Origin: an uncultured Desulfosarcina sp.
GTDB taxonomy: Bacteria > Desulfobacterota > Desulfobacteria > Desulfobacterales > Desulfosarcinaceae
Reading direction: 5' to 3'
DNA length: 64,000 nt
Assembly: GCA_963674945.2 (NCBI GenBank)
Contig: CAXXWQ010000004.1
Span: 992,001-1,056,000, forward strand
Below the pieces are notes generated by a model, which did no database searches, was not told the DNA's origin, and worked only from the letters and a program-made list of their open reading frames with translations. Positions 23,651 to 42,677 of this stretch are shown here, piece after piece. Both the position numbers and the translations under genes were made by a program. Positions within the stretch are counted from its first letter, which is position 1; each line of letters opens with the position of its first letter.

Positions 23651-24271
23651 TCACAGACGAAACGAATCTCGATATTTTTTTGCCAGTGGGTCCTCCCCGT
23701 TCGGAAACATGGCACCGAATGGTTCAAAGACTTCGATATCCGTCAACGTACAAAAGTGCATGCCTTTTTTGCTACCCGTCATCATCAATGGCCTGGCTTT
23801 TTGAACATCCAACCCGCCATTCGAATTGAGGACCTCATCGGCCACTTCCAGGCGCAGCAATTTCCCCATGACCAGCACATAATTTGTCTCTTCATAGGTT
23901 TTGAACAATTCGCATTCCATCCAAGCGTAGCTTCCGGCAATTCCAGGAGCACGAATTGTTTCCGAGGGCTTCTCATTCAATCCTGCCAACTCGAATTCAT
24001 CGACCTCCGGCAGAGAGTACTTTGCCGTGGGGACGACCTTGTCCGAAAAATCGATACCCACCAGATTCACCACGAACTCTCGCGTTTCCCGGATATTGAC
24101 CAACGTATCTCTTCTGAAGGACGAGGCGAGACAAATCAGGTCTAAGGGGCGAAGCACCGGCATGATGCAGGAATAGGGCGCGATGTTTCGCACGCCATCT
24201 TGGCTGAGGGTTGATATCAATGCCACGGGCAGCGGCATGAGGCCTTCTCGCATAAAGGGTTTCAAAATCAT
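23651..24271 (-). CDS. Flavin reductase (DIM6/NTAB) family protein
   Basis: PLPVALIST, NIAPYS, DTLVNIRETREFVVN and MEC. Confidence 0.88.
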   Translation of the reverse strand: MILKPFMREGLMPLPVALISTLSQDGVRNIAPYSCIMPVLRPLDLICLASSFRRDTLVNIRETREFVVNLVGIDFSDKVVPTAKYSLPEVDEFELAGLNEKPSETIRAPGIAGSYAWMECELFKTYEETNYVLVMGKLLRLEVADEVLNSNGGLDVQKARPLMMTGSKKGMHFCTLTDIEVFEPFGAMFPNGEDPLAKKYRDSFRL

Positions 24272-24291
24272 GGTATTTCTCCCCCACTTTT

Positions 24292-24912
24292 TCAAAGACA
24301 ATCCCGGCAGACCCTTTGTCCGCCCGAAGTTTCCATTTTCGAGGGCATGGTGGGCTCACCGCAGATGGCGCAGGGTTCGGAGGGTTCAATGCGGGCTCTG
24401 GGCGGTGGCTCTATTTCCACGGCCGTGATATGGAAAAGTTCTTCCGCGGGAGTTTCAAGGATCTGTCGGGCGCGCTCCAAATGAATCTCATTGAACCGCT
24501 GCCTCTCCTCGTCCGCAATATTGCCGTCAATCACTTTCCGGATCAGTCCCATGTGTTCCTTGTCCGGCCGGAAAGCGTTTGTCCTCAAGGAGACCCTGAC
24601 GCCACTTCCCGTATTCCGGGAAAAGAGTGTCAAGACCATCTTGCCGTGGTCCTTGTAGATAAAATTGCCCTTGCCGAAGGTGCATCCCGTGAGCACCTGC
24701 ACCGCATCGGCCGAGCAGGCGTCCGTCTCCACGACGGCCACCACCTCTTCATCCTCGGCCCGGCTCGCCCGCAAATGGTCCAGCGCAGTTCGAGCCGCCT
24801 TAAAGCCAATGGAGAGGCCCGGGCAAACATGGCCATGAAACGCCTTGCATTTTTTGAAATCCTCGCTGTTCATGATATCGTCTGCTGTCATGATCGGCAT
24901 CCTTTCCATCAA
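24292..24912 (-). CDS. FmdE-family protein with C-terminal zinc finger
   Basis: FHGHVCPG, ETDACSADAVQ, GCTFGKGN and CAICGE...CRDC. Confidence 0.9.
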   Translation of the reverse strand: MMERMPIMTADDIMNSEDFKKCKAFHGHVCPGLSIGFKAARTALDHLRASRAEDEEVVAVVETDACSADAVQVLTGCTFGKGNFIYKDHGKMVLTLFSRNTGSGVRVSLRTNAFRPDKEHMGLIRKVIDGNIADEERQRFNEIHLERARQILETPAEELFHITAVEIEPPPRARIEPSEPCAICGEPTMPSKMETSGGQRVCRDCL

Positions 24913-26006
24913 TTTACAAACTTCGCTTTTTGTCCGATGGGACCGTAATCGTTCTGCATGCTTTGATATACGGGATTTCCCACTAAAAATGTATAAATTT
25001 CATCCGCTTTTTGTTGCAGGTTCACATCTTCAAACTGCTTTTCGAATAATATTTTCCCAATCGCATAAGCATCGGCCAATGCCGTACAGATGTTGGTCGT
25101 GTACCAGTTAAACGGATGGAGCGTATAGACCCGGCTGGTGGAAAATGCTTTCAACGCATGATAAATTTCCGGTTTCTTCCGATAATCCTCCTGGACGAGA
25201 GCTATTCCGCCGCAATCGATGAAAACAACGTCCGGATTCAATTTCAACAACGTCTCCTTGTCCATGACCACATGGCTGCCGATACTGGCTTGAACATGTT
25301 CGGCAATGTTTCTTGCACCAACCCATGTAAACGGGATATAACGTTTTTCCGTACTTTCAATGCCTTGGATACCGCGGTAACCAATGCCGCCAACATAGAC
25401 TGTCGGTTTCGAATCTTCGGGGATCACCTCGGTCCGCAAGCGCATGTCCTTTCGAAGGGATTCGATATATGCCACAACCTCATCGGCCCGTTTCTCACGG
25501 TTCAAAATTCTCCCGGACGTGCGGATGGCATCGTAGACAGCTTCATCGAAAGTAGCGAAAGCACCATAACTCAATACTACCACAGGAATTCCAACGGTCC
25601 GCGCTACCTCATCCGCCAGTGAGGCGTCCATGTAAGTAATGAATATCACCTGCGGTTTGAGTGCAAGCAAGGCTTCAAGGTCCGGCTTCTTGTTGATGCC
25701 GGCAGGACCGCCCGGTCCGCAACGGGGCAATTTGGAAAGTTCCGGGTGAGCAATCCAGTATGGTCGGCCGCCGGGGTTCATTTTTTCCATATCTTCCACG
25801 CCGACGACTTTCGACGCTGCCTGAAGATAGACAATCAACCGAAGCGCGCCAGGCCCCAAACAAACGATCCGGTCCGGATCAAAGGGGGCTGTCACGTGCC
25901 GCCCGGCCATATCTGTCACCTCGATCGTCCGGGCGGCAGTGCAAATGGTAGATAGCGCCAGTATTACGGCAAGAACGCAGATGGAACAAAGACCGATCTT
26001 CTTCAT
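24909..26006 (-). CDS. ABC transporter substrate-binding protein, iron-siderophore/cobalamin class
   Basis: Signal peptide, VTDMAGR...RIVCLG, PDLEALLALKPQVI and ETLLKLNPDVVF. Confidence 0.9.
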   Translation of the reverse strand: MKKIGLCSICVLAVILALSTICTAARTIEVTDMAGRHVTAPFDPDRIVCLGPGALRLIVYLQAASKVVGVEDMEKMNPGGRPYWIAHPELSKLPRCGPGGPAGINKKPDLEALLALKPQVIFITYMDASLADEVARTVGIPVVVLSYGAFATFDEAVYDAIRTSGRILNREKRADEVVAYIESLRKDMRLRTEVIPEDSKPTVYVGGIGYRGIQGIESTEKRYIPFTWVGARNIAEHVQASIGSHVVMDKETLLKLNPDVVFIDCGGIALVQEDYRKKPEIYHALKAFSTSRVYTLHPFNWYTTNICTALADAYAIGKILFEKQFEDVNLQQKADEIYTFLVGNPVYQSMQNDYGPIGQKAKFVN

Positions 26007-26023
26007 GTACTTCTCCTTAACAT

Positions 26024-26776
26024 CTATAGGGGCACTACGATGGTATGACCCTCGAATTGTTTTAACGCCACCTCAATACCATAAACATCTCGAATCACCT
26101 TTTCGTTCAACGTTTTCCTGTTTGAAATAAAATGAACTTTTCCTTCTTTTAAGAAGAGGAAAATTTCGGCAAACCGAACTGCGATATTCAGGTCATGAAT
26201 AGCGATAATCGTCGAGATTCCGTAGGTTTTTGAAAGGTCCCGGATCAGACGCATCACTTCGATCTGATTTTTCAAATCAAGGTTGCTTGTGGGCTCATCC
26301 AGCAGAAGAACTTTGGGTGTCTGTGCCAATGCCCGGGCGATGATGACTTTTTGAAGTTGCCCGCCGCTCAGATCACATACACGTCTCATTGAAAGCGATT
26401 CTAAACCAATTCGCTGAAGGATGCTTTCAACGATGGCATAATCTTTTGGCCCGGCTTTTAATCCCATGTGGGGTTTACGACCCATCAGAACCGTCTCGAA
26501 AACGTTCATGCCGGAATCAAAATGGCGCTGGGGCACATACCCGATATGACGGGCGACGTTTGCCCGGCGCATATCGGATATTTTTTTCCCATCCAGCAGC
26601 ACGGTCCCTCGATGAGGAGATAGAATTCGATTCAAGCATTTAAGAAGCGTCGACTTGCCGGCTCCGTTCACCCCCAGGATGCACATCATGGTACCACTTT
26701 CAACGCGAAAACTCACTTTTGAAAGCACGGGATGACTGTTATACGAAAAGCATATGCCGTCTGCGACGAACTTCAT
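26024..26776 (-). CDS. ABC transporter ATP-binding protein (FecE/BtuD class)
   Basis: GVNGAGKST, LSGGQ, LLLDEPT and HDLN. Confidence 0.93.
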   Translation of the reverse strand: MKFVADGICFSYNSHPVLSKVSFRVESGTMMCILGVNGAGKSTLLKCLNRILSPHRGTVLLDGKKISDMRRANVARHIGYVPQRHFDSGMNVFETVLMGRKPHMGLKAGPKDYAIVESILQRIGLESLSMRRVCDLSGGQLQKVIIARALAQTPKVLLLDEPTSNLDLKNQIEVMRLIRDLSKTYGISTIIAIHDLNIAVRFAEIFLFLKEGKVHFISNRKTLNEKVIRDVYGIEVALKQFEGHTIVVPL

Positions 26777-27849
26777 TTGTGCTCCTTGACGAGAAAATAG
26801 AGGAACACAGGCGCTCCCAGAAACGAGGTGATCACACCCACCGGCAATGATCCGGAACCGATGAAAAACCGCCCGAAGGTATCGGCGGTAAGCAGCAATA
26901 TTGCGCCCAGAACTGCGGAAAATGGGATTAATATGCAATGATCGTCACCCACAAGACGCCTTGCGGTATGGGGTGCGATCAGACCGAGAAAACCGATGAT
27001 GCCGTGAAAACTGGTTGCCAGGGCAGCAACGATTGTCACGATGGCCATACCGGTGAGACGGATCGTATTCACACTGATACCAAGTCCTTTTGCTGTCTCA
27101 TCCCCTAAGGAAAAGGCATTTAAGTCCCACCGGAATATTACAAGGAAAGTCGAAATCAGAAACACGGCGCCTGCCAGCAATCCGATTTCCTTCCAGCTGG
27201 AACGGGCCACATCCCCGAAGGTCCAAAAAACGACCTGGGCCAGTTCAGTCTCGGTGGCAATGTATTGAATCAGGTAGATTCCCGAAAGAAACAAAGAATG
27301 CATTGCCACGCCTGCCAGAATAATGGCCGTCGGCGAGAGTCTTTTGAATTTTGCCAAAAACAGAATCACAAGGGTTGCGGTCATTCCGCCGGCGAAAGCG
27401 AATGCCGTAACCGAAACCATGCCTGTACCGAATATCACAATGGCGGCAGCGGCGCCGAATGCGGCCCCGTGACTGATTCCGAAGGTAATGGGGGAGCCTA
27501 AGGGATTTCGCAAAAGCGTCTGCAGACATAGTCCCGACAGGGAAAGTCCCCAACCGCAAAGGATGGCAGCCACCACTCTTGGCAGCCGGATATTGGTAAT
27601 CACCACGGCGGTGGTGGCATCGGTGTTGCCAGTCAGTGCGCCGAACAACCCTTTTACAGGGATATCATAGGCCCCTTTTGCAACCGCAAATACGGCGACG
27701 AGAAAAATCACCCCGAGAAACAAAGCCAAGAGATAGTACTTTTTGTGGACGTGTTTCAAATAGACGGACGTAATGGTGCCGGGGGATGCGCCATACTGGT
27801 TGCCGGAATCTTTGATTGTACTGGTAAAATGTTCTATCCCACTTTCCAC
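26773..27849 (-). CDS. FecCD/BtuC-family ABC permease
   Basis: IRLPR, QTLLRNPLGSP, GDETAKGLG, IGFLGLIAPH and LPVGVITS. Confidence 0.93.
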   Translation of the reverse strand: MESGIEHFTSTIKDSGNQYGASPGTITSVYLKHVHKKYYLLALFLGVIFLVAVFAVAKGAYDIPVKGLFGALTGNTDATTAVVITNIRLPRVVAAILCGWGLSLSGLCLQTLLRNPLGSPITFGISHGAAFGAAAAIVIFGTGMVSVTAFAFAGGMTATLVILFLAKFKRLSPTAIILAGVAMHSLFLSGIYLIQYIATETELAQVVFWTFGDVARSSWKEIGLLAGAVFLISTFLVIFRWDLNAFSLGDETAKGLGISVNTIRLTGMAIVTIVAALATSFHGIIGFLGLIAPHTARRLVGDDHCILIPFSAVLGAILLLTADTFGRFFIGSGSLPVGVITSFLGAPVFLYFLVKEHK

Positions 27850-27958
27850 ACCAAAATTCCCTCTTCAACGTCTGTCGTGTGGCGAATCAAGCCGTCTTTT
27901 TCATGACAGACCAATTATTTGATCTTAGCTCCATGAATAATTCACAAGTCCGTTAAAA

Positions 27959-28015
27959 ATAAAAAAGCCACGAGGTCACGTCGCAGTTCTGGTGCGATGA
28001 AACCTTCGTGGCTTT
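27959..28015 (-). terminator. Leader hairpin/intrinsic terminator (possible attenuator) of the ABC operon
   Basis: Minus strand AAAGCCACGAAGG...CCTCGTGGCTTTTTTAT, between promoter and start codon. Confidence 0.65.
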
Positions 28016-28130
28016 GGTGTTCGTTACGAGAGCCCCTCCCTGTCCGGGGATGAGGCCGCTGGCAATCGGTTTCTACGAAATAGTGTGCCTGCAGGCAGTG
28101 TGGTCGGCTTCGGCCGCCGAATGACTGCCT

Positions 28131-28159: not shown

Positions 28160-28228
28160 GCGATTCGTCGGCGGTCGTCAATGGATAACAATGGGGTTAA
28201 TGGAACCGTTGTTTGCCAAAAGGTTAGA

Positions 28229-28660: not shown

Positions 28661-28701
28661 TCGATCCGTTACGATGGAGAACGCCGTGAGGCATCGGCGA
28701 C

Positions 28702-29307: not shown

Positions 29308-29354
29308 GATATTTTTGAACTCAGGGAAGTCTTGAAAGTCTGAAAGCAGTTACG

Positions 29355-30464
29355 TTATGCATAAAACCCGCGTGCATCGACGCGTTCTTTCTCCAGTCCT
29401 TTTTGTGTGAGCAGATAGAACTCGTCATACTGATTGACACAATGACTCACGGCGACGGGAACGATGCTTAGGCGCTGCCCGATTTTCGGTGGCGTTTTGC
29501 ATCGGCTGACGTCGACCCAGCCGTGCTCTTCGTGGAGACGGAAAATGCGCGCCTCGGGATATTCGGGGATAAAGCCCATTTCGAGATTCTCGTGCCGCAA
29601 AAGCTGCTTGGCGGACAAGGCCTTGGCGCCGGCGTCGATGATCACCTGACCGGCAACGACGTCCGAAACCACGGTGGCGATCACGCGGGCCGCACATTCG
29701 TCGAGTGTGCAATGCTCAAATTTTAGGCTGAAATAATCCTGATAAACGGCCGTGCCGGCCCGGATTTCGTTGACGTACTTCACCCGATGGGTGTTGAAAA
29801 TCGACGGGGTCGAGCCGGACGAAACGATTTTGGGTTTGAGGCCGGCGGCACACAAGGCCTCGTGGGCCGGTTCCCACAACCGGTTGATCTGTTTGAAGCT
29901 GTCGGCTGATCCGGCGGCATCGCCGTAAAGGTGACCCAGATAAAGCTGAACGCCGTCGAAGCGAAGGCCCTTGCGATCGGCGGCCAAACGGGCGAGACGG
30001 GTGACTTGTCCGGGATCGGCCACGCCGCAGCGGTGAAGCCCCGCGTCGAACATGATCAGAATACCGATGGTCGATTGATGAACGGCAGCGGCATCTGCCA
30101 GTTGGTCGATCAGATACTCGGTGTCGGCGGCAACACGGATGCAGTGCGTGCACGCCAATCTGGCCAAGGATGTGGCACGCCACTTACCCACCGCCGGATA
30201 GGCGACCAGGATATCGAGATCTTGGATTGCCGACATGACCTTGGCCTCGCCGACCTTGGCCACGGCAATGCCAACGGCCCCGGCCTCGAGCTGCATCCGG
30301 GCAATGCGAAGGGATTTGTGCGTCTTGATATGGGGGCGGACGGCGAACCCGTTGCGGCCCCCATACTCCTGGACCCGCCGGACATTTTTTCTGGCAATGG
30401 CCTCGTCGATCAAGAGGAAAGGCGTTGGAACGGATGCGGTGAAGGCGTCCAGGTTATCGACCAT
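29355..30464 (-). CDS. Fold-type III PLP enzyme (D-threonine aldolase/D-serine dehydratase/alanine racemase-like)
   Basis: RPHIKTHK (PLP Lys), AKVGEA, DAGLHRCGV, SGSTP, EIRAG, IDAGAKALS and EEHG. Confidence 0.88.
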   Translation of the reverse strand: MVDNLDAFTASVPTPFLLIDEAIARKNVRRVQEYGGRNGFAVRPHIKTHKSLRIARMQLEAGAVGIAVAKVGEAKVMSAIQDLDILVAYPAVGKWRATSLARLACTHCIRVAADTEYLIDQLADAAAVHQSTIGILIMFDAGLHRCGVADPGQVTRLARLAADRKGLRFDGVQLYLGHLYGDAAGSADSFKQINRLWEPAHEALCAAGLKPKIVSSGSTPSIFNTHRVKYVNEIRAGTAVYQDYFSLKFEHCTLDECAARVIATVVSDVVAGQVIIDAGAKALSAKQLLRHENLEMGFIPEYPEARIFRLHEEHGWVDVSRCKTPPKIGQRLSIVPVAVSHCVNQYDEFYLLTQKGLEKERVDARGFYA

Positions 30465-31269
30465 GATCGTTCTCCTTGACGACAAACACCGACGTGTTAT
30501 TGACCGGCGGCGTTGGCCGGATGCGCCGGTATTCCTTTAGGGGAGGGACAAGCCCACCGACATGATCCATATCGAAAAGTCGCCGCAATCCTTTTTCATA
30601 GATGCGGTAAGAAAGCTTCATCCCACCGGGCAGGCGCCCGGCCAGGTGGGTGAAAATTTCCTCCTTGGGAACGGCGTCGGCCCCCACCATGATCAGGCTG
30701 CACGGCGAAGACAGCGGCAGCAGGAAATGATCGCCCAAGACGACTTCGATGTTTCCACCAAGTCCCAACGCGTCCAACACCCGGCGCGATAGGTCGGCAT
30801 TGATGGGTTCCTTTTCAATCCCGACGCCCCGGATGCCGCATTGCTTGACCAGGGCGATCAGGCTCAGGGGCAACGGTCCGCTGCCCAGAAACACCACCCT
30901 GTCATCGGGTTTCAGATCTGCGCCTTTCGATTCCATTTCCGCCAGTTGCAGGTAGTTCGGGTAGTAGATGAATCCACTGAGTATTTTCCAGGGGGCGTCG
31001 CCGTCGATAATGGCCATGGCCCGCTGTCTTTCCAGACGCAGGCCGTGGACTTTTTTGAGCCGGGCGATTTTTTCGATGGCCGGCTGCAAAGACCTGTCGG
31101 CGATCAGCGTGTCGACCCGATGGTCGTCGACATCCAGCGCTGCCAATCGATTCAGGGTTTCCACATGCGGAAGAAATACATCCTTTGCACCGTCGAGAAT
31201 CTGCTTCTCGGTCAGATCACGGCAGTCGTCATAAATCTCCAATAGTCGATGTTTGATCTCTTCCAGCAT
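30454..31269 (-). CDS. Nicotianamine synthase-like protein 2
   Basis: FIYYPNYLQLAEME, VFLGSGPLPLS and PPVNNTSV match the NAS/MtNAS pattern. Confidence 0.85.
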   Translation of the reverse strand: MLEEIKHRLLEIYDDCRDLTEKQILDGAKDVFLPHVETLNRLAALDVDDHRVDTLIADRSLQPAIEKIARLKKVHGLRLERQRAMAIIDGDAPWKILSGFIYYPNYLQLAEMESKGADLKPDDRVVFLGSGPLPLSLIALVKQCGIRGVGIEKEPINADLSRRVLDALGLGGNIEVVLGDHFLLPLSSPCSLIMVGADAVPKEEIFTHLAGRLPGGMKLSYRIYEKGLRRLFDMDHVGGLVPPLKEYRRIRPTPPVNNTSVFVVKENDHGR

Positions 31270-31274
31270 GTTTC

Positions 31275-32162
31275 TTACTTTTCCAATTTGGCCGCGACAA
31301 TCGTGTTATTGACTCTTCCCACGGGATAAAACGTCTTGACGATGCGAAAGCCGTTGATTTCGTCTTCGGTTACCGGCTCATGCAGGATGGCGCGCATGCC
31401 GGTATAGGTCCGGAAGAAAACCAGGGCATCGGTTTTGCCCCTCTCCCGCAGAATAATGCGCAAATTGCGGAAAATCCGTTCCTTGGGGTCGGCCATGGCC
31501 GCGACCAGGACCATGTCCCAATCAAGCTCCCGAAGCAGGGTTTCGTCGCCGCGGACAATTTCGACTTCCTTCTCCAACCCCAGGCAGCGAATGACCTTGC
31601 TGGACCAGTCGACGGCGTCTTCTGAAATATCCAGCCCCACGGACCGGATACCTGCCAGGCGATTAAAAAGAATGAGGCTGGAAGGCACCGGGCCGCAGCC
31701 GATGAATACCAGTCGGCTGCCACTGTCAATCCGGTTGAGTTCGATCTGGTTTCGCACCAGGGCCTCGTAGCGGGGATAGAGCGAAAAAGATTTCAAGGCT
31801 TTCCATGGGGCGTTGGATGCCAGCAGCCTTTCGGCCAGGTGAACTTCATGGATACTGAAAAAGGTGTTGTAGTAGGAACGGATGTTGGGAAGGACGGACC
31901 GGATCTCGGGTTCATCCAGAATCAGCCCGGCAAGGTGCGGGCCGGCGTCCATGTGGGCCAGGTCGTCGAGAAGCAGAAAGAGTCGATACAGGTCCTCGGG
32001 ACCCAGCGTATTCAACGCATCGTCGTCATAGTGTTCGATCCGTTCGGCAAAGGCCATGATATGGGGCTTGATGATGGTAAGGCTGTGCTGACAATCTTTG
32101 CAGCAGCCTAAAAAGTCATGTTTTTTCAGTTCGTGCTCATGGTGATAGTTGACATCGTGCAT
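31275..32162 (-). CDS. Nicotianamine synthase-like protein 1 with His/Cys-rich N-terminus
   Basis: FSLYPRY, FIGCGPVP, GDET, VAAMADPK, RTYTGMRAIL and VNNT, closely resembling archaeal MtNAS. Confidence 0.88.
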   Translation of the reverse strand: MHDVNYHHEHELKKHDFLGCCKDCQHSLTIIKPHIMAFAERIEHYDDDALNTLGPEDLYRLFLLLDDLAHMDAGPHLAGLILDEPEIRSVLPNIRSYYNTFFSIHEVHLAERLLASNAPWKALKSFSLYPRYEALVRNQIELNRIDSGSRLVFIGCGPVPSSLILFNRLAGIRSVGLDISEDAVDWSSKVIRCLGLEKEVEIVRGDETLLRELDWDMVLVAAMADPKERIFRNLRIILRERGKTDALVFFRTYTGMRAILHEPVTEDEINGFRIVKTFYPVGRVNNTIVAAKLEK

Positions 32163-32186
32163 GGGAATCGTTTTCCGGGTTGGATG

Positions 32187-34058
32187 TTATTTTTCCTGGT
32201 CTGGATTCGGGTCATTTTCCTTGGCGGCGGTCAGGGAGGACTCATCCCGGGCCGAATGGTCGTGGTCGTGGACGCCATGATCGCCTTCATTATGATGATC
32301 ATCATGATATCGCCTTGCTGCATGCTCGTGCGGATCATCTTTGCCGGGATGGCTGTGCAGAAAACGGTGTCGGTGAATGTGATGGTGCTTGTGGAGGTGG
32401 TCGTGGGCCATCAACTGGTGTTCATGGGGATGATCGTGCAGATGCCGGTGAAAATGGCTGTGCTCGTGTTCGTGTTGCAAGGCCAGGATGGCCTCGCTGC
32501 AGCGCAGACGGTAAGTATAGGCCAGGCCGTTGAGATTCGCCAGCCCTGGATCCTTGAAAAACCCGTCCGTTGACATGTCCTGACAGATTGCTCCCTGGTG
32601 CATGATCACCGTCCGGCGGGTCAATGCACCGACAAAAAACATGTCATGGCTGACCAGCAGCAGGGTTACATCCAGTTCCCCGAGGATGGCCAACAGCAGT
32701 TCCTCTCCCCGGGGATCGAGTCCGGCCGAGGGTTCGTCCAGGACGATCAGCTTGGGCGACATGGCCAACACACAGGCCAGGGCCAGGCGTTTGCGCTCGC
32801 CGCCGGACATGTGTAGCGGAACGCGACCTTCGAACCCCTCCAGGTGCACCAGGGATAGCGCTTCTTCGATGCGCTGGCGGACTTCGTTTTTGGAAACGCC
32901 CAACTGCCTCAGGCCAAAGGCGATCTCCTCTTCCACACTGGGACAAACGAGTTGATCGGCGCTGTCCTGGAAAACCATGCCGATGTTGCGCCACAAATAC
33001 CTGCGCGAGTGGCGGGTCACGGGCCGGCCTTCAAAAAGATAAGTCCCGTCGCCTTTATGCAAACCCAGCAGGCAGGCCAAGAGGGTGCTCTTCCCGGCCC
33101 CGTTTTCGCCCACCAGGGCCATCCGCTCGCCGCTTTCGATGCAAAGATCGATCCCGGTCAAGGCATGGGTCCCGTCCGGATACCGGAAATGATAGTCGTG
33201 CAGATCGATCATGGGCGGAACGGGCGAAGTTGTCGAAGGGCAGGCAATCCGGCAAGTGCAGGCCGGTTGCCCGATATCCACGCAATTGGTAGTGGGTTCC
33301 AGCCGGAAAGAGAAATCGAGGCCGTGGGATCGCAACCGGCTGCGCTGGGCCACCAGGTCGTTCATGGTGTAGTCGTGGGCGATGCGTCCCTTCTCCATGA
33401 CCACGGCCCGTTGGCACAGTTCATAGAGAAAAAGCAGGTCGTGACTGACACAGACGAGCGTTCCCGCAAAATCCATCAGCAGATCCAGAAAAACCTGTTC
33501 CTGGCTGGGATCCAGGTTGGCGGTTGGCTCGTCGAGAAGCAAAACTTCCGGCTGCATGGCCAGCAGTCCGGCCAATGCTGCCCTTTTTTTTTGCCCGAAA
33601 CTAAGATGATGCGGTGGCTTATAGGCCTTGTCCGCCAGATGAACCCGCTCCAATGCCCGGAGAGAGGCCGCATGGGCATGCTCACGGGCAAGGCCCTGAT
33701 TGGAGGGCCCAAAGGCAACATCGTCGATCAAGGTATGCCCGAAAAGCTGATCGTCGGGGTCCTGAAACAAAAGACCGATGGAAAGCCGGCTGCGATCGAG
33801 ATGATCGTCTTGGAGCGGCTCTCCCTTAAAACGTACGATCCCATCGTCGGGCAGCAACAATCCGCAGATTTGTTTGATCAACGTCGTTTTGCCGGACCCG
33901 TTTTGTCCCACCAGGGCGATGCGGTCGCCCGGGGCAATCTCGAGGGTAATTCCGCTTAGGGCCTGGGGACCATCCACATAACGATAGTTCAAATCCGTAA
34001 GGCAAAATAGCGGATCTTTCACTCCGGGTGGCGGTATGTGAGCATTTTTTTCGTGCAT
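32187..34058 (-). CDS. ECF transporter ATPase (NikO/CbiO), two fused ATPase domains with a His-rich tail
   Basis: Two Walker A motifs (GQNGSGKT, GENGAGKS), FQDPDDQL / FQDSADQL, and a C-terminal poly-His tract. Confidence 0.9.
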   Translation of the reverse strand: MHEKNAHIPPPGVKDPLFCLTDLNYRYVDGPQALSGITLEIAPGDRIALVGQNGSGKTTLIKQICGLLLPDDGIVRFKGEPLQDDHLDRSRLSIGLLFQDPDDQLFGHTLIDDVAFGPSNQGLAREHAHAASLRALERVHLADKAYKPPHHLSFGQKKRAALAGLLAMQPEVLLLDEPTANLDPSQEQVFLDLLMDFAGTLVCVSHDLLFLYELCQRAVVMEKGRIAHDYTMNDLVAQRSRLRSHGLDFSFRLEPTTNCVDIGQPACTCRIACPSTTSPVPPMIDLHDYHFRYPDGTHALTGIDLCIESGERMALVGENGAGKSTLLACLLGLHKGDGTYLFEGRPVTRHSRRYLWRNIGMVFQDSADQLVCPSVEEEIAFGLRQLGVSKNEVRQRIEEALSLVHLEGFEGRVPLHMSGGERKRLALACVLAMSPKLIVLDEPSAGLDPRGEELLLAILGELDVTLLLVSHDMFFVGALTRRTVIMHQGAICQDMSTDGFFKDPGLANLNGLAYTYRLRCSEAILALQHEHEHSHFHRHLHDHPHEHQLMAHDHLHKHHHIHRHRFLHSHPGKDDPHEHAARRYHDDHHNEGDHGVHDHDHSARDESSLTAAKENDPNPDQEK

Positions 34059-34068
34059 TGGGCATCTT

Positions 34069-34989
34069 TCAGAAAAAAACGCGGTCATATACCAGCAAGG
34101 CCACACCGACGGCCAACCACAGGCCTGCACCGGCAAGGTCCATGGGCCGAAGGCGCAGTTCGGCCTGAACCGGGAAGCGTCCCTTGTAGCCGCGCGCGCG
34201 CATGGCGTCGAATACCCGTTCGGTGCGCTCGAAGCTGCGCACGAACAACATCCCCAGGAAATTGGCCATGGCCCGGATGGTGGCCAAATCGGACCGTTTA
34301 CGAAAGCCACGCACCTGCATGCCGGTGGACATGCGCCGTGCCTCATGCCGGAATACGTTCAAATAGCGGTAGCTGAGCAGTACCATCTGGCCGGCCATGT
34401 CCGGCACACCCAATCGGGACAGTCCCTGCAATGTAACCGGCAGGGGCGCGGTGGCCAGCAGCGGCTCCATGAGCAGGGTAATGGCCACGGCCTTGGCGGC
34501 AATGGTGGCGGCCAGCCAGAAACCGCGCATGCTGAAATGAAGCCAGTGCCAGTCACCGAAAACGATGACCGTATCACCGCCGTGAAGGGGCACGGTAAAA
34601 GGCATGACCAGCAAAAACATGGTAATGAAACCCACGATGGCCAAAAGCCGCATCACTACTTTTACCAGGGACACCCGGGCTACCACCAATACCAGGCACG
34701 ACAGGCCGATGGCCACGAGCGCCGGCGTCATCTGCTGGATGGCCGTGATCATGAAGCTGTAAACCAGGATGGTGACGATTTTACAGCGCACGTCCCAAAG
34801 GTGAAGCAACGAGCCGCCGGCCGTGCCTTCCAGTTGCGGCACCGACCAGTCCGGATTATCTTTTTCCGCACTGCGCTTACGGACCACCTTCCGGAGCAAG
34901 GTCACCCCGGCGGCCAATAGTCCCAGCGGCGTGATCACCATGGCGAGAAACTGCCACAGCGGGAACCGGATGAGGGTCACATCAGCCAT
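34069..34989 (-). CDS. cbiQ: ECF transmembrane T component (NikQ/CbiQ)
   Basis: WDVRCK, LSYRYL, RSFERTERV and AMRARG. Confidence 0.9.
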   Translation of the reverse strand: MADVTLIRFPLWQFLAMVITPLGLLAAGVTLLRKVVRKRSAEKDNPDWSVPQLEGTAGGSLLHLWDVRCKIVTILVYSFMITAIQQMTPALVAIGLSCLVLVVARVSLVKVVMRLLAIVGFITMFLLVMPFTVPLHGGDTVIVFGDWHWLHFSMRGFWLAATIAAKAVAITLLMEPLLATAPLPVTLQGLSRLGVPDMAGQMVLLSYRYLNVFRHEARRMSTGMQVRGFRKRSDLATIRAMANFLGMLFVRSFERTERVFDAMRARGYKGRFPVQAELRLRPMDLAGAGLWLAVGVALLVYDRVFF

Positions 34990-35611
34990 GCGCCGGCCTG
35001 TGGGGGCTTTCGAAGGCACTCAGCAACAAGGCCGGCTTGACACGCGCCAAAAAGCCCACCGTCAGTGCGCTGACCGCACCTTCGATGATAATCACCGGCA
35101 CATGGGCCGCCAAGGCAATCTTGGCCACACCGAAGAAATCCTCGCCGCCGGTGACGAGCAAAACGGCAAGGATAAGCGCCGCCAATACCGTTCCTGCGGC
35201 ACCTGCCAGGCCGCCGATCAATGCCTGGCGCGAGGGTGTGCTACCCTTGAACTTCTGGAAAAACCAACCGCACACGAGTGCGGGAACGCCCATCATCAAG
35301 GCGTTGGCGCCCAGGGCCGTCAGGCCGCCGAATTGAAAGAGCAGACTCTGCAGCAAGAGGCCGAGACCGATGGAGAGAAAGGCCGATGGTCCCAAAATCG
35401 CCCCGGTCAGCCCCGGAATGATGAGATGCACACTGGTCGGACCGAAGGGGATGTGGATCAGGGAGGCGACAAAGAATGCCGCAGTCATGACAGCCAGTTT
35501 CGGCATCTCCTCGCTTTTGGTTCGGCGTGCACTCCAAACGGTCAAGCCGGTACTGATTGCATAGCCGCCAATGGCCACGGAAACGGGAAGAACACCGTCG
35601 GAAATATGCAT
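34982..35611 (-). CDS. cbiM: Ni/Co ECF substrate-specific component (NikM/CbiM)
   Basis: N-terminal MHISDG metal-binding motif, SVHL and GGLTALGAN. Confidence 0.93.
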   Translation of the reverse strand: MHISDGVLPVSVAIGGYAISTGLTVWSARRTKSEEMPKLAVMTAAFFVASLIHIPFGPTSVHLIIPGLTGAILGPSAFLSIGLGLLLQSLLFQFGGLTALGANALMMGVPALVCGWFFQKFKGSTPSRQALIGGLAGAAGTVLAALILAVLLVTGGEDFFGVAKIALAAHVPVIIIEGAVSALTVGFLARVKPALLLSAFESPHRPAHG

Positions 35612-35614
35612 AAT

Positions 35615-35911
35615 TCACTCCTTGCGCCTGGAGGCCACGTATGCAGCCACACCAAACAGGCCGAAAATATAGCCGATACCAGCGAATACGTCTTTAAGCC
35701 CGGGCTTGTCCAAATCCGCGCGCAAGGCTGCGATTTCCCGCTGGATACGCCTGAGATCAGCGGACAACTTGCCGTTTTGCTCCTTTAGCACCTCGATCAC
35801 CGTTTGCGAGCCCTCACCGTACGATTCCTCCGCCCAACCACCACCTGAAAGGATAAATAGAAAGAGGCACGCGATACCGATCGTCAGACCCCTTCGAATG
35901 ATTATTGTCAT
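35615..35911 (-). CDS. NikL-like accessory membrane component (C-terminal type)
   Basis: Coiled coil plus DVFAGIGYIFGLFG TM helix, immediately upstream of nikM. Confidence 0.7.
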   Translation of the reverse strand: MTIIIRRGLTIGIACLFLFILSGGGWAEESYGEGSQTVIEVLKEQNGKLSADLRRIQREIAALRADLDKPGLKDVFAGIGYIFGLFGVAAYVASRRKE

Positions 35912-36240
35912 TTTCCCGCCTCTACCTCGGATTTTTTCAGCTTGAAACTGTTCTTATGCCCCATGGTTGCATCGATGACGATGTTGAAATCGTCGATCTT
36001 GGGGATATCAAAACTGAACAATCCACCGTTGTCGGTGACCCCTTCCAGAATCAGGTTGCTCTGGCTGTCATACACCATCACCTTGCCTCCTTCCACGGGC
36101 TTACCGTCCGGAAAATAGCTTTCGGTGTATATTTTCCCACTTTCTGCGTAGGCAAATAGGTTGACTTTATGTGCCAGCGCTGTTCCGCTAAAGAGCAGCA
36201 TCACAACCACTGCCACAAGCAAATATTTCATGGTCTTCAT
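35908..36240 (-). CDS. NikL-like periplasmic accessory component
   Basis: Signal peptide ending ALA/HKVNLFAY, YFPDG and MGH. Confidence 0.72.
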   Translation of the reverse strand: MKTMKYLLVAVVVMLLFSGTALAHKVNLFAYAESGKIYTESYFPDGKPVEGGKVMVYDSQSNLILEGVTDNGGLFSFDIPKIDDFNIVIDATMGHKNSFKLKKSEVEAGK

Positions 36241-36335
36241 CGCGGCCTCGATTCTTTTTTAAATCAATATGCAAAAACCGGCGCCCTTCCTGATAGCGAA
36301 GGGCGCCTGGTGGATATTCGTCAAACCATGCCCGC

Positions 36336-37142
36336 CTATTTCATGTCGCGGGTATGCACCCAGAAAACCGCACCGATTTCCACGCCCTTGTCGTGGCCAT
36401 CGTGCTTGATTGTCCAACTTGCTTCGTTCAAGGCGGCAAATCCCCACCACCCCGCCTTAGGCATGGCATAGCTGAAGACACCGTTGGCATCGGCCTTGAC
36501 CACCTGGGTCACATAGGGGTCGGCCGGTGGAACGATCTTGCTGATATTGCCGGGAGACGCATTTAAATACTCGACCTCCACCTCGGCAAAGGGGACCGGT
36601 TTGCCCTTGAGCAGCACCTGTCCGGTGAACAGATTTCCGGTCCACAGCCCGTAGGGTCGCGTGAAGGGAATGATCTCGGTTTCCAACCCCACATGCTGGT
36701 CCCATCCTTCCTCCAGACCCAGCGCATCCACGCAGACCTTGGTGTAGTGAATGATAAAACAGTCCTCGGCGGGTTCCCAGTAAGGTTTCGGCTCGACATA
36801 AAAGGTGTAGTCGCCGGGCCTGCGGATTTTATAATCGGTTTTCCAAAAGGTAAATGACTCACTCTGATCCGGACTTTTCCCCTTGGCTTCCTGAAGGCTG
36901 CCCAGCAAATCGGTTTTTTTCCCGTCGTGCATTACCCCGAACTGCTTGGGTTTGACCATCTCCATGTAGTGCCCTTCCATGGGGTGGATGAACTTGACCT
37001 CCACGGTCAGGGTTTTATTGTCATCCTGGGTCACGATGTCATCCGATGGAATCACCGTACCGAAATGGGCCGCCGCCGGATTGGCCGCCATCATCACCCA
37101 TGCCATCATTACCACCGATACCAAACAAAGTTTCGTACGCAT
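36336..37142 (-). CDS. DUF4198/NikK-like periplasmic Ni-uptake component
   Basis: Signal peptide then [21 protein letters not shown] and GWWGFAAL. Confidence 0.85.
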
Positions 37143-37195
37143 CACAGTTTTCTCCTTTCCGGATTATATAATAATTTGATTGATCATCGCAATCA

Positions 37196-38323
37196 TCAGA
37201 ACGCAACGGCCAGCTGAGCGGTAACGGTATCCGCCTCCATTACATCGTCTTCATACTCGTCGTGCAGGTATTCCAATGCCAGATTGGTGTTTTCGAAGAA
37301 GCCCCAGTTCACCACGATGCCATATTGGGTTTCCGGCATGAAATCCGCACTATCGTCGGCCCCGCCGTAACGCAGGGCCAGTTCCAGGCTGTCTATGATC
37401 ATCGCGCCGAACTCGAGGTTCCAGGCTGATGGTTTTTGCTCCCGGGTATCCGCTGCGTCGTAGAGTTCGCCGGCCTTGAACGAGTCGAGTGCGGCGACAT
37501 ACTCACCGATCAGCTTGAAACGTTCCATGATTTCGATCGTCGCAAATGCGCTCCAGCCACCAATCTGATCGTCGAGTGAATCGACCTGGACAGCCTCGGA
37601 CAAGGAATTCGAAGAAGCCAGATTGGAGGTGTAGGAGGCACCCACCGTGAGGAAGGGAAGGGGATTGGCCACAACGGCGGCCACGTAACTGTCGACGACG
37701 TCATCGTCCCCGGCCTTATCGATGCGGCCGTTAAAAGCGCCCACGGAAATGTCGATCAATTCATCGCCGATGCGGTAGCCGGCAACCACCGCCCCCTCGG
37801 CGGTTTCCCCCAGCACCAGGGTGCTCGGGTCGGTGACGAAGTGGCTGTCAAAATAGCCGAACGGTATGTATTGACGTCCGGCGATCAGATATGCGGAGAA
37901 GGCTTCCGTTCCCGTGATGGTAATAAACCCCTCGTCCACGAAAAGATCATCTTCCTCATACTTGAACAATACATGACCATCCACGTGATCGACGATGCGG
38001 GCATCTACGGCCAGTTCCACGGTGGCCAGGTCCACATCGCTTTCCTTGGTGTCTTCTTCCGCCGGATCGTCGTAGTCTACCTTTTGATAGCCGGCCTCAA
38101 CCTCTATCAATCCACTGATCTGTATGCGGTCATACCACTTGTCTCCCTCCACGGTTCGACCCAGGGCCTGTTCCAGACGTTCGATCCGTTCCTCGATGCC
38201 GGTGACACCACCGGCTTTGGGCTCCGTTTTTTCCTCGGCACCCGATTCTGCGGCTGAAAAACTCGTGGCAACGCATACCATCATGGCAACCATCAAAACC
38301 CCGACCACTTTACTTTTCATCAT
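37196..38323 (-). CDS. LbtU-family outer-membrane porin
   Basis: Signal peptide, ISGLIEVEA, LATVEL, GRQYIPFG, LGET and terminal TAQLAVAF. Confidence 0.78.
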   Translation of the reverse strand: MMKSKVVGVLMVAMMVCVATSFSAAESGAEEKTEPKAGGVTGIEERIERLEQALGRTVEGDKWYDRIQISGLIEVEAGYQKVDYDDPAEEDTKESDVDLATVELAVDARIVDHVDGHVLFKYEEDDLFVDEGFITITGTEAFSAYLIAGRQYIPFGYFDSHFVTDPSTLVLGETAEGAVVAGYRIGDELIDISVGAFNGRIDKAGDDDVVDSYVAAVVANPLPFLTVGASYTSNLASSNSLSEAVQVDSLDDQIGGWSAFATIEIMERFKLIGEYVAALDSFKAGELYDAADTREQKPSAWNLEFGAMIIDSLELALRYGGADDSADFMPETQYGIVVNWGFFENTNLALEYLHDEYEDDVMEADTVTAQLAVAF

Positions 38324-38742
38324 ACTTCTCCTCCTGTAACATTGAATTGCTATTGGGCTGCATCGAGAAGCAACCGTGCCATACCAATCATCTGCATTCC
38401 ATCGACGTTTATGAGACACCATTAGAATTGCGAGTTGAATTTCTTTTAAACAAGGAATAGAAAGGGCAACGATATCGCGCTTACCCTAAAAGGAGACCTT
38501 CGTGGACTTGATGATTTAAAATCTTTCGATCTTGGTTCTTCGTTGGTTCTTGGAAGGGCTTCGACCCTTAAATTAAATTTGTTTTAAGGCAAATCATTAA
38601 ATTAATCAATCGACTTTTTCGTTTGAGATAAACGAAAGTATGGCGGGGTCTGTCGATATCGGAACAATCTCAAAAGGTACGCCCTACACACCAGCACCTC
38701 TTCCACCGTTCCCATACACCGAATGAATGATCCCTTTCGGGT

Positions 38743-38982
38743 TCATGTCCCGACATGCTTGACGGCGATGGCGTCCAGAGGGCATGCCTCGATACAATCC
38801 CAGCACCCCATGCACATGTCCTGAAAAATCATCGGTGATTCAAAAGGGCCGTCAAGTTGTTTGATTACTTTGTGGTCACAAGCCGGTACGGCCAAACAAC
38901 GCCCCTCTCCGGGGTCGCATCGGTTCGGATGGCAACTTTCGTAGTCAATCGAAGCAAATGTTTTTTTGGACTGTAGATTCAT
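38743..38982 (-). CDS. Small 4Fe-4S ferredoxin-like protein
   Basis: CHPNRC...C...C and CMGCWDCIEACP. Confidence 0.85.
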   Translation of the reverse strand: MNLQSKKTFASIDYESCHPNRCDPGEGRCLAVPACDHKVIKQLDGPFESPMIFQDMCMGCWDCIEACPLDAIAVKHVGT

Positions 38983-39188: not shown

Positions 39189-39770
39189 TCAGGCCAAACA
39201 GCCCCTGCAAACCAGCGCCCCGTTCACGGATTCCAGTTCCCGATGAATCTGTTCCATCCAATCGGGCATTTTCAGTTTATCCACCATCAGGTAACTTTTA
39301 GAATACGGTTTTACGTCGATGATCGGGCTGCCATCCACCGCTTCCAGTCCTTTAACAGTAAGCACGTTGCCGTTGCGCGCAACCAGAGAAACCGCCGAAA
39401 CCAGCACTGGGTTAGGTCGGGCCGGGCTGCAGGTGGCAAAAATGCCCTGCATGGGCATATCCTTGCGCCCCATGGGATGCACTTTTCTTAGCCTGCGCCG
39501 GGCCGGGTCGATCAGGTGCGGCCAGTAGAGCACCAGCACATGGGAAAAGCCCTCAATGCCGTCGAGAAGTTCCTCCATCTCAGGATCGATGACCAACTCA
39601 CAGATGCACTCTTCCACCTCCCGATGATGGGCCTTGACGCTTTCCATGCGCATTTCCAATGAAAGGTCGGATTCGCCCGCCGACAGGATGGGTTCCACGA
39701 TCTTGCTGCGCACCACGCCCACAGGCTGCAAGTCCATTTCCGGCGTGTCTTGTTGCCGGGCGTCGTTCAT
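39189..39770 (-). CDS. tsaA: TrmO/TsaA-family SAM-binding methyltransferase
   Basis: GIEGFSHV, GIFATCSPARPNP and EAVDGSPIIDVKPY. Confidence 0.88.
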   Translation of the reverse strand: MNDARQQDTPEMDLQPVGVVRSKIVEPILSAGESDLSLEMRMESVKAHHREVEECICELVIDPEMEELLDGIEGFSHVLVLYWPHLIDPARRRLRKVHPMGRKDMPMQGIFATCSPARPNPVLVSAVSLVARNGNVLTVKGLEAVDGSPIIDVKPYSKSYLMVDKLKMPDWMEQIHRELESVNGALVCRGCLA

Positions 39771-42321: not shown

Positions 42322-42545
42322 TTGGCTCTCCTTTTATGGTTGGTTTTAATCCTATCGCTATTTGGCCATGGTCGAAGAATGCCTGCCAATTGTGAGATGT
42401 TGCACTTTTATTTAACCTTGGCTTTTGTATCCCTTACGGTTGAGACCGAATCCTTCCCGCAGGCCACGGACATATTTTGACAGACGACTGTCTTCGTGTC
42501 GCGCTATCGGTTTTGTGAAAGTTACCTGGAATTTGAGCCGGAGAA

Positions 42546-42598
42546 ATAAAAAAGCCATGCCGGCCGCCTGGTAACCGATGGTTGGGCCTTCATGGCTC
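42546..42598 (-). terminator. Leader hairpin/terminator (possible attenuator)
   Basis: Minus strand AGCCATGAAGGCC...GGCCGGCATGGCTTTTTTAT. Confidence 0.6.
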
Positions 42599-42677
42599 TA
42601 CTTGGAAATGATAGTGATGATATTTCGTGAAATGCCATTTTCCTAACGGCAGATTGTGTCACCCTTTAAAACAAAAT

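Follow-up and report, generated by a model that had tools for sequence, protein, structure and literature searches.

A probable nickel-uptake operon of an uncultured Desulfosarcina sp. raises the question of why two enzymes resembling nicotianamine synthase (NAS) and a pyridoxal-phosphate (PLP) enzyme should be encoded beside a metal transporter. The window analyzed here is a stretch of 64,000 nucleotides (contig CAXXWQ010000004.1, positions 992,001 to 1,056,000), and a sequence-only reading had proposed that one ten-gene system makes a nicotianamine-like chelator for nickel. Sulfate reducers, methanogens, and ANME need nickel enzymes yet inhabit sites where sulfide precipitates nickel, and we know of no demonstration, in the accessible literature, of what physiological part the NAS products of archaea play.

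Organization of the Operon

The proposed co-orientation of the genes, with short gaps or overlaps, was confirmed: all ten ORFs lie on the minus strand with the limits first drawn, in the order porin-nikK-nikL-nikL'-nikM-nikQ-nikO-NAS1-NAS2-PLP. For the chosen starts, they are separated by 53, 95, −4, 3, −8, 10, 24, 5, and −11 nt, the last value being the overlap of the NAS2 end with the ATG of the PLP gene (30464). An LbtU-family porin of 375 aa (37196..38323; NF033652, 269 bits, cut-off 90) is followed by a NikKMLQO-type ECF set, in which M, Q, and O are accompanied by K and L. NikK (DUF4198, 268 aa; 36336..37142) matched PF10670 with 204 bits. NikL is divided over two ORFs, an N-terminal half of 110 aa (35908..36240) and a C-terminal half of 98 aa (35615..35911), which matched positions 2–99 (97 bits) and 136–180 (50 bits) of NF058648, both below the cut-off of 100. 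The transporter also comprises the S component NikM/CbiM, starting with MHISDG (34982..35611; PF01891 (CbiM), 175 bits), the T component NikQ/CbiQ (34069..34989; TIGR02454, 118.6 bits, cut-off 111.8), and the double ABC ATPase NikO (32187..34058), whose C-terminal tail is His-rich (29 His among the last 100 aa). Then come NAS1 (295 aa; 31275..32162), NAS2 (271 aa; 30454..31269), and a fold-III PLP enzyme (369 aa; 29355..30464; PF01168 and PF14031).

The host genome contains exactly two NAS genes, one CbiM/NikM match, and one DSD1-like match, all in this operon; with a single nikM match, any one gene has a chance of ~0.3% of lying within 10 kb of it. Several NiFe hydrogenase matches and three CO dehydrogenase matches were also found in the genome. 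The island further carries a gene with a SAM-binding TrmO N-terminal domain (39189..39770, minus strand; PF01980), and it has been rearranged, with TonB-receptor and CoA-transferase remnants at 28085-29307.

Family Assignment of NAS1 and NAS2

Both enzymes had been described as resembling MtNAS, and our data support this. They scored 67.8 bits (NAS1) and 82.9 bits (NAS2) against PF03059 (cut-off 27.1), and MtNAS was the best PDB relative of both, with E-values of 3.5e-48 and 7.7e-29, respectively, against 2e-4 and 2e-6 for CntL. The predicted structure of NAS1 (pLDDT 89.9) matched MtNAS (3FPE) with a TM-score of 0.92 and an rmsd of 1.7 Å. A helical N-terminal domain and a Rossmann SAM domain were recognized in the NAS1 model and, for NAS2, from the sequence alone. 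The catalytic pair of MtNAS, Glu81/Tyr107 (PMC10491745), whose equivalents are described as essential in AtNAS1 (PMC10248798), corresponds to E106/Y132 in NAS1 and E80/Y106 in NAS2, and is invariant in the alignment (65/65 NAS1 rows and 111/111 NAS2 rows). As sequence and fold matches point to MtNAS, an assignment to ordinary methyltransferases was rejected, and both proteins likely transfer aminocarboxypropyl groups from SAM to an amino acid.

Each subfamily has features of its own. NAS1 bears an N-terminal His/Cys tag (H..H.H...H....CCxxC) and, at MtNAS positions, Phe77 (Gly in MtNAS), His80 (Leu in MtNAS), and Gln114; the Gly77-to-Phe and Leu80-to-His replacements would make its helix face bulkier, the pocket roles being assigned from helix position and not from coordinates. 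NAS2 shows Lys or Arg73 and Asn106, together with the motifs YPNY and YRIYEKG. Neither enzyme carries the signature of MtNAS orthologues (positions 70/73/77/80/106/113/114 and placement on the same branch), and the rows bearing this signature formed a branch of their own in the tree. NAS2 formed one clade (support 100/99) and NAS1 probably another (90/78), each with bacteria and archaea inside. A recent bacterial duplication as the origin of the pair was rejected by the AU test (p 0.0001). Both the NAS1 and the NAS2 subfamily are therefore old, and both spread across Desulfobacterota and Methanosarcinia. Weak NAS1 matches (E ~5e-4) were also seen in G010, G013, and G024.

The PLP Enzyme

The closest PDB relative of the PLP enzyme was D-threonine aldolase (E 1.4e-30), and the protein atlas placed it in generic DSD1-family clusters only. 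The PLP lysine is kept (K54 in the TTG frame, Lys59 of AxDTA). The metal ligands of the family, His347 and Asp/Cys349 (PMC4401734), are replaced in the alignment by Ala/Asn and Ser/Ala. The replacement was found in 50/50 locus orthologues and in 119/120 database matches (one was not parsed), whereas the ligands were present in 7/7 ordinary homologues from relatives; judged by alignment, the enzyme has thus lost the metal ligands of D-threonine aldolase and D-serine dehydratase. The structure model (pLDDT 66) falls below 50 in the C-terminal domain and so gives no active-site geometry, and the metal-site call is taken from the alignment. Racemization or epimerization would be the most likely chemistry, a tentative assignment that carries the same weight as other reactions; elimination or breakdown is possible but a little more doubtful.

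An orthologue was found in 10/100 relatives, each of which also carries the NAS pair; the other relatives had none. The PLP gene was absent beside NAS2 in 14/48 testable bacterial loci and 20/20 archaeal loci, and was not found in the seven NAS2 carriers of the even phylum sample. The triplet as an obligatory unit was therefore rejected, and the PLP gene is an optional companion of the NAS pair.

Conservation of the Neighborhood and the Nickel Link

NAS1 immediately precedes NAS2 in 54/56 testable bacterial loci and in 6/7 loci of the even sample; of the NAS-NAS-PLP triplet, it is thus the first two genes that hold together, and the NAS1-NAS2 pair forms the conserved core. Many archaea have NAS2 without NAS1. 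The porin adjoins the pair in only 1/12 relatives and was rejected as a stable part of the operon, so that the ten genes do not stand as one conserved system.

ECF genes were found within 10 kb of NAS in 13/20 bacterial loci having 8 kb on both sides (some bacterial loci were chosen by likeness to the window, and kin in these counts are not independent), in 9/20 archaeal loci, and in 11/15 Methanosarcinia NAS-pair loci. Against this, no nik genes were seen near NAS in 7/20 well-flanked bacterial loci, nor at any of the seven NAS2 loci of the even phylum sample within the stretch fetched (three stop at a contig edge), two of which carry TonB genes. The proposed transporter link, which recurs in both domains, is therefore strong, yet not universal. 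CbiM/NikM occurs in 91/100 relatives and the NAS pair in only 11/100, which marks the putative chelator as accessory.

The M genes linked to NAS are of at least three types, 28–89% identical to the NikM of the window, with NikK/L or a PDGLE-type N as partners, and His-rich tails recur on the linked NikO in bacteria and archaea. NikK/NikL or NikN are reported to mark the nickel branch (PMC545781, PMC2667541), and some NikKMLQO systems to serve cobalt (PMC2667541); subunit type and context argue for nickel as the metal of this transporter. The F430 nickel chelatase CfbA lies near NAS in 5/20 archaeal loci and adjoins NAS2 in 12/157 loci (NF033198, 153 bits, cut-off 120); one locus (L114) reads nikK-L/M-Q-O-NAS2-cfbA on one strand. 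Other neighbors include a TrmO-like gene (7/12 relatives' stretches), frequently a class I methyltransferase, tetrapyrrole-methylase-like genes (14/157 loci), and, in close relatives, a recurring FecCD-type operon.

A Leader RNA Ahead of the Operon

A terminator-like hairpin leader, absent from Rfam and newly seen here, heads the NAS operon and nik, TonB, and FecCD operons across the order. Three copies lie on the minus strand of the window. Copy 1 (38457..38518), 134 nt 5' of the porin ATG, scored 30.1 bits (E 0.037) with a covariance model whose alignment already included it; its 3' arm is degenerate, and it folds alone no better than shuffles (z 0.48). Copy 2 (27958..28024; 48.7 bits, E 3e-6) precedes an operon with domain matches to a FecCD permease, an ABC ATPase, a periplasmic binding protein (SBP), FmdE, and a flavin-reductase-like protein (23651..27849, minus strand); these genes, which have the leader in common with the NAS operon, are a candidate importer of metal chelates. 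Copy 3 (42545..42608; 48.6 bits) precedes an orphan gene (264 aa; 41527-42321), for which the protein atlas gave no usable match, and a hydrogenase-maturation-protease-like gene (40969-41478). Of two hairpin patterns, the loose one matched 67 times, mostly by chance, and the tighter one matched 4 times in the genome and 3 times in reversed or complemented controls, so that leader calls come from the covariance model only.

Among the 148 leader matches listed, 29 lie on the same strand and at most 5 kb upstream of nikM/cbiM (chance ~0.05% per match); they belong to 27 genomes, 22 of which have no NAS. At two loci (L113 and L126), the leader stands upstream of NAS1 without an intervening nik gene, and it is also found ahead of TonB receptors and of FecCD and Opp-type importers in the host genome and its relatives.

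A known riboswitch was rejected as the identity of the leader: Rfam at gathering score returned one tRNA and no riboswitch in the window, and three copy-rich loci gave no family match on any leader copy at E up to 1. Searches with the published delta-proteobacterial NikR consensus and two other consensuses found no good site at 28000-41000, and the host genome has no NikR_C match. A dual-hairpin antiterminator of the ANTAR kind would show a pair of hexaloop hairpins, with an ANTAR protein encoded nearby; in the leader, 35/36 copies could form a single hairpin of 3 bp with a loop of 5 nt, with covariation not above shuffles. The one ANTAR gene of the genome, whose neighbors look nitrogen-assimilation-like judged by sequence starts, was set aside as a partner of the leader because it is located elsewhere, unlinked. 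The leader is likely an attenuator, and likely switches the NAS genes on together with nickel uptake, making it a testable candidate for NikR-independent control.

Exporters and Cnt Components

The absence of CntM and of an exporter in the operon had been pointed out and was borne out more widely. PF10100 (CntM) had no match in the host genome (98.7% complete), nor in the control genomes, and no CntM-like cluster was found in 157 loci. NAS1 and NAS2 reached 28.7 and 28.9 bits with the CntL equivalog NF033601 (cut-off 350). Cnt clusters are described as nearly always including an MFS, EamA, or MATE exporter (PMC7438024). Among the 29 scanned of 51 multi-TM neighbors (177 loci), no EamA exporter was found, and MFS occurred at two loci and MATE at one; thus, no conserved exporter is linked to the NAS genes. 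About eleven EamA genes lie elsewhere in the host genome.

Proposed Role and Alternatives

Taken together, the earlier interpretation stands for the enzyme family, the lack of CntM and exporter, and the nickel-ECF link, and falls for the conserved ten-gene system. It is fairly probable that the product of the NAS pair is a nicotianamine-like chelator with a part in nickel handling, in one compartment or another. As to which, the evidence leans toward the cytosol: our leading, if tentative, proposal is a thermonicotianamine-like compound, probably cytosolic, that would hold imported nickel for nickel enzymes. We infer a course running from leader readthrough and entry route, through the division of labor between NAS enzymes and PLP tailoring, to nickel handover. 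Under low nickel, transcription would read through the leader terminator, and Ni2+ would enter via the porin and NikKLMQO. NAS2, which many archaea have in the absence of NAS1, may be the core synthase, and NAS1, with its bulkier helix face and His/Cys tag, may add or prime one unit and perhaps sense metal. In Desulfobacterales, the PLP enzyme would act without a metal, tailoring either the starter or the alpha-amino end that is left free. The chelator would then buffer nickel against sulfide and pass it to hydrogenase, CO dehydrogenase, or, in archaea, CfbA.

We consider it rather unlikely, and less probable than the cytosolic role, that the product is a secreted nickelophore, released by an unlinked exporter and recovered as the nickel complex by TonB plus FecCD or Opp importers, helping to dissolve nickel from sulfide. 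Known bacterial NAS-like products are reported to be secreted and re-imported by FecCD or Opp systems (PMC7438024), the leader is shared by FecCD-SBP, TonB-receptor, and Opp-type genes, the host genome has EamA genes outside the locus, TonB/ExbB genes flank some nik-less NAS loci, and a product in the D configuration, if the PLP enzyme yields one, would be in keeping with secretion. However, the conserved exporter of Cnt clusters is missing here, FecCD genes lie within 10 kb of NAS in only 4/77 genome loci, and the genes found with NAS in archaeal loci are those of an ECF and of a chelatase that is cytosolic. ECF S components of the CbiM/NikM class, moreover, bind bare ions. A chelator for cobalt or several metals, or one detoxifying excess metal, is improbable: the absence of a cobalamin riboswitch from the window, the scores of the M genes tested, in the window and at linked loci, which all stayed below the TIGR00123 cbiM cut-off, the NikK/L or PDGLE-type N partners, and the nickel specificity of CfbA speak against cobalt, and co-location with uptake genes against detoxification. 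On the other side stand the NCBIfam name of the M genes (CbiM), the cobalt-linked NikKMLQO systems, the tetrapyrrole-methylase-like neighbors, the lack of NikR and its box, and the several metals that nicotianamine-like molecules are reported to bind (PMC7438024).

More improbable still is that the acceptor of the aminocarboxypropyl groups is RNA, protein, or a precursor of polyamines, in the last case with the PLP enzyme acting as a decarboxylase, and that the metal context is secondary. RNA and other metabolites do receive such groups (PMC10491745), fold III includes decarboxylases (PMC4401734), and TrmO-like and class I methyltransferase genes are frequent neighbors; yet sequence and fold favor MtNAS far above other methyltransferases, the PLP enzyme is DSD1-like and not ornithine-decarboxylase-like, besides being missing from archaeal loci, and metal genes are neighbors in both domains. 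That ordinary genes of a metal island came to lie together by chance, to which the rearranged island and the unstable porin might point, is highly improbable: this reading is largely refuted for NAS1-NAS2-PLP by the restriction of the PLP orthologue, among the relatives, to carriers of the pair, and for NAS-ECF by a link that recurs in bacteria and archaea while ECF type and gene order vary, and it holds for the porin.

A bolder form of the chelator proposal, which we regard as doubtful, would have sulfate reducers and methanogens/ANME share a new nickel carrier, an aminopolycarboxylate built in assembly-line fashion by the two NAS subfamilies, both ancient, and delivered to F430 chelatase, hydrogenase, and CO dehydrogenase, with new, metal-free tailoring chemistry by the PLP enzyme and a nickel-responsive leader replacing NikR for the whole uptake regulon. 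The gene set is small and expressible, as it needs two or three enzymes with SAM and amino acids, and cultured carriers exist (Desulfosarcina, Desulfospira joergensenii, Desulfobacter curvatus, and Desulfonema magnum), so that chelator structure and nickel delivery are directly testable.

Comparison with Known Systems

The NikR-controlled NikKMLQO systems of delta-proteobacteria (PMC545781) share the transporter gene set; here, NikR match and NikR box are lacking, and a leader hairpin is present. D-threonine aldolase, D-serine dehydratase, and BhcC (DSD1 family) share fold, PLP lysine, and ~27% identity with the PLP enzyme, whose metal site at His347 and Asp/Cys349 is replaced. The cnt systems (staphylopine, pseudopaline, yersinopine, and bacillopaline) likewise place a NAS-like enzyme beside metal importers, with an optional stereochemistry enzyme (CntK), whereas our locus has an ECF importer, two NAS, neither CntM match nor exporter, and a PLP-dependent fold-III enzyme as the extra one. 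Plant and fungal NAS have the catalytic Glu/Tyr and a Tyr-x-Asn motif resembling that of NAS2, and use three SAM units with an azetidine start; the plant VGMD motif (PMC10248798) reads VGAD in NAS2 and VAAM in NAS1, and nicotianamine is described as an intracellular chelator in plants and fungi (PMC10341464). Closest is MtNAS of Methanothermobacter thermautotrophicus, with the same fold and Glu81/Tyr107, ~36% identity, an anaerobic host, and no opine dehydrogenase. A single enzyme is reported to perform both transfers there (PMC10491745), whereas two subfamilies are present here, NAS1 with Phe77/His80/Gln114 and the His/Cys tag and NAS2 with Lys or Arg73 and Asn106.

Operon Architecture and Gene Content

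All ten co-oriented ORFs claimed in the sequence-only reading (porin, nikK, nikL, nikL', nikM, nikQ, nikO, NAS1, NAS2, and PLP) were found on the minus strand in a short-gap array, with successive gaps of 53, 95, −4, 3, −8, 10, 24, 5, and −11 nt, and profile searches upheld the family assignments. NAS1 and NAS2, the two nicotianamine synthase-like proteins, both scored above the PF03059 cut-off. As had been claimed, the nearest relative of both was MtNAS, the thermonicotianamine synthase of Methanothermobacter thermautotrophicus, and CntL was matched only distantly. By homology search, the PLP protein was DSD1/D-threonine-aldolase-like. No NAS genes beyond these two were found in the genome (7.08 Mb, 98.7% complete), where CbiM/NikM and DSD1-like proteins had a single match each. 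Between porin and nikK there is a sigma-70-like site, and 3' of nikK a terminator-like hairpin, both of them consensus matches only; from sequence, we infer that the operon genes would be co-transcribed.

Between the PLP gene and the FecCD operon, the island is interrupted by remnants (window 28085–29307), fragments resembling a TonB-receptor gene and a CoA-transferase beta subunit truncated at its N terminus. The window also holds one tRNA gene (62277–62362, minus) and ORFs that are transposase-like by their starts (5562–7001 and 20206–22461).

NAS1 and NAS2 as Distinct Subfamilies

In a tree of 38 protein rows (MtNAS stood outside the tree, its residues being read from pairwise alignments), NAS2 formed one group (support 100/99) and NAS1 probably another (90/78), and both groups included bacteria as well as archaea. 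The rows that carry the MtNAS signature (P0156 and P0161) split off separately. A tree holding Desulfobacterota NAS1 and NAS2 together was rejected (p 0.0001). Glu81 and Tyr107 (MtNAS numbering) were invariant in 65 NAS1 and 111 NAS2 rows. NAS1 kept Tyr73 and Arg106, with Phe at 77 (64/65) and His at 80 (65/65); NAS2 carried Lys or Arg at 73 (110/111) and Asn at 106 (111/111). Positions 70–81 probably face the chamber, because they lie on a single long helix in the predicted NAS1 structure. An N-terminal His-rich CCxxC tag was present in 72 of 86 distinct NAS1 starts, and Methanosarcina-like copies did not carry it. NAS2 is likely the core synthase, since many archaea have single or doubled NAS2-type genes and no NAS1.

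Conservation of the Locus

Among 100 relatives, 12 had a strong NAS1 match, followed by NAS2 in 11 of their 12 stretches; G015 retains no more than a NAS1 fragment (L044:8270–8560) adjoining a transposase-like ORF, an apparent pathway loss. PLP came after NAS2 in 10 of the 11, the remaining one being a contig end, nikMQO lay upstream in 5/12, and a porin in 1/12. Exactly those 10 relatives had a PLP orthologue (64–85% identity), and six others had 29–31% homologues. Searching with a NAS2 profile yielded 77 genome loci, drawn from the 80 best-scoring of 123 stretches, and 80 metagenome loci, the top 80 of 168; among the 80 genome stretches used, the nearest named relatives were Desulfosarcina, with NAS2 identities of 67–75%. 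In the 57 bacterial genome loci, NAS1 stood beside NAS2 in 54 of 56 testable cases, and PLP adjoined NAS2 in 34 of 48. Conservation of the gene set held for the NAS1–NAS2 pair and not for PLP and porin as fixed parts.

The claimed link to a nickel transporter was partly borne out: genes of the nickel-type ECF importer (M, Q, or K) lay within 10 kb in 13 of 20 bacterial loci flanked by 8 kb on both sides. In an even phylum sample of 400 genomes, NAS2 was found in seven (six paired with NAS1), no PLP orthologue was detected, and the stretches fetched around the seven loci contained no nik genes, so the ECF–NAS link is not universal. Locus samples overlap in source, and related genomes are not independent.

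Across 20 archaeal loci, ECF genes occurred in nine, CfbA in five, and PLP in none. In the class Methanosarcinia, 62 of 251 genomes exceeded the NAS cut-off; 15 of 20 stretches chosen from these 62 carried the NAS1–NAS2 pair, 11 of the 15 with ECF genes, usually with nikM-N(PDGLE) and nikQO on opposite sides. One family of class I SAM methyltransferases, which might add another tailoring step, was present in 23 of 157 NAS loci and in 9 of the 15 Methanosarcinia pair loci (e.g., L063:8070–8840, L249:6274–6873, and G000:C2:57242–57997 in this genome); the same family was also found under the leader RNA described below.

Several other neighbours were observed. In Methanosarcinales and Methanophagales, NAS2-type genes flank cfbA, the F430 nickel chelatase gene, sometimes as NAS2-cfbA-NAS2 (L101, L105, L108, L110, L114, L193–L199, and L201). 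At L078:12536–13495 and L166:4320–5279, where NAS1 is absent, a nickel transporter of the NicO/RcnA family separates NAS2-PLP from nik genes. Two different ECF metal transporters bracket the NAS genes in L045 (11867–15833), L249, and L252. Eight loci (L056, L112, L122, L134, L135, L140, L144, and L195) have selenium genes adjoining the NAS island as a cluster of a YedE transporter, an Se/S carrier, and an ExtI-like porin, with tRNA-Sec in L134.

A Candidate Leader RNA

When the region upstream of the porin was aligned with that of one relative, a common terminator-like motif emerged, in which GCCANGAAGG is followed by a variable stem-loop and then by a complementary arm and a U run. Across 36 copies picked by hand, five of the 13 stem pairs had changed on both sides and many G-U pairs occurred; covariation of the stem exceeded 500 shuffles and slid controls, in copies found by pattern, a route biased towards pairing. 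Within the 5' arm, a small competing hairpin was possible in 35 of 36 copies, its covariation not being significant. With a covariance model, this genome yielded four copies, which precede the porin-nik-NAS-PLP operon (window 38457–38518, minus; a weak match), the FecCD operon (27958–28024, minus), the orphan/hydrogenase-protease genes (42545–42608, minus), and a TonB receptor-methyltransferase-ABC operon (G000:C2:60509–60576). The orphan (41527–42321, minus), a 264-aa protein followed by a hydrogenase-maturation-protease-like gene, had no Pfam, NCBIfam, or atlas match, and its homologues recur in the same islands of other loci.

The model found copies in 79 of 100 relatives. Distances to nikM were examined for 148 matches listed, with 149 further and two own-genome rows left out; among those listed, 29 lay on the same strand within 5 kb upstream of nikM/cbiM, one on the opposite strand, and one downstream. 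The 31 ORFs after the 30 top-scoring loci encoded TonB receptors (7), DUF4198 (4), FecCD (4), binding proteins (4), Opp ATPase, FmdE, DUF3842, DUF3450, and a methyltransferase (1 each), and seven were left unassigned. Of the bacterial NAS loci searched, 17 of 60 had a leader match, many of them having contributed to the model; of 27 archaeal loci, none did. No NikR_C match was found in the genome. We infer that the leader senses nickel; it is a candidate NikR-independent nickel attenuator of an RNA family not in Rfam.

A palindrome, TGCAAY-N5-RTTGCA, lies 40–60 nt upstream of several leader copies (L086:8756 region, L089:2312, L113:8574, L134:18608, and L140:18561). It resembles the Desulfovibrio Zur box of PMC545781, whose spacer is 3 nt rather than 5 nt.

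Retention or Secretion of the Proposed Product

Our leading, still tentative, reading is that the NAS1–NAS2 pair would make a thermonicotianamine-like chelator, that its synthesis would be under nickel-uptake control, and that it would be kept inside the cell. The main rival, in which the product is a nickelophore that is secreted and then recaptured through the co-regulated TonB/FecCD/Opp systems, seems rather unlikely. Exporter genes unlinked to the operon are present in the genome, which would allow secretion. No CntM or exporter cluster was found among 65 gene clusters present in at least 3 of 157 loci (33 representatives scanned). CntM had no genome match either, with the positive control silent too. 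The 177 loci held 51 multi-TM neighbours without a label; the 29 that were scanned included no EamA, two MFS proteins, and MATE in one locus, and the others fell in scanned or named clusters. An APC permease was a repeated neighbour (8 of 157 loci). The earlier claims that CntM and a linked exporter are lacking agree with these surveys.

A chelator serving cobalt, or detoxification, is improbable, and chemistry unrelated to chelation slightly more so. Chance clustering of these genes we regard as very improbable.

Comparison with Known Systems

The NAS literature found concerns the cnt, plant, and MtNAS systems. Within the literature searched, no paper linked nicotianamine synthase to Methanosarcina or to sulfate reducers, although a 2020 Metallomics review of NAS diversity, outside the search, may show these neighbourhoods; the word "nicotianamine" is absent from the main text of PMC11247825. 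Together with this paper, we used PMC10491745, PMC10248798, PMC7438024, PMC12454661, PMC10341464, PMC545781, PMC2667541, and PMC4401734. The locus is real, conserved, and, as far as searched, uncharacterised, with nicotianamine-like chelator biosynthesis as its predicted role.

The strict linkage of PLP to NAS2 suggests that the enzyme would tailor either the starter or the product, by a reaction that is a guess. According to PMC4401734, D-threonine aldolase and D-serine dehydratase need two metal ligands. Both were replaced in 50 of 50 PLP orthologues, where an invariant Cys lies two positions later. They were likewise replaced in 119 of 120 database matches and were kept in 7 of 7 ordinary homologues; an aldolase or dehydratase assignment was therefore set aside. 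The enzyme of the window shares with these two enzymes the conserved PLP lysine and differs from them in its replaced metal ligands.
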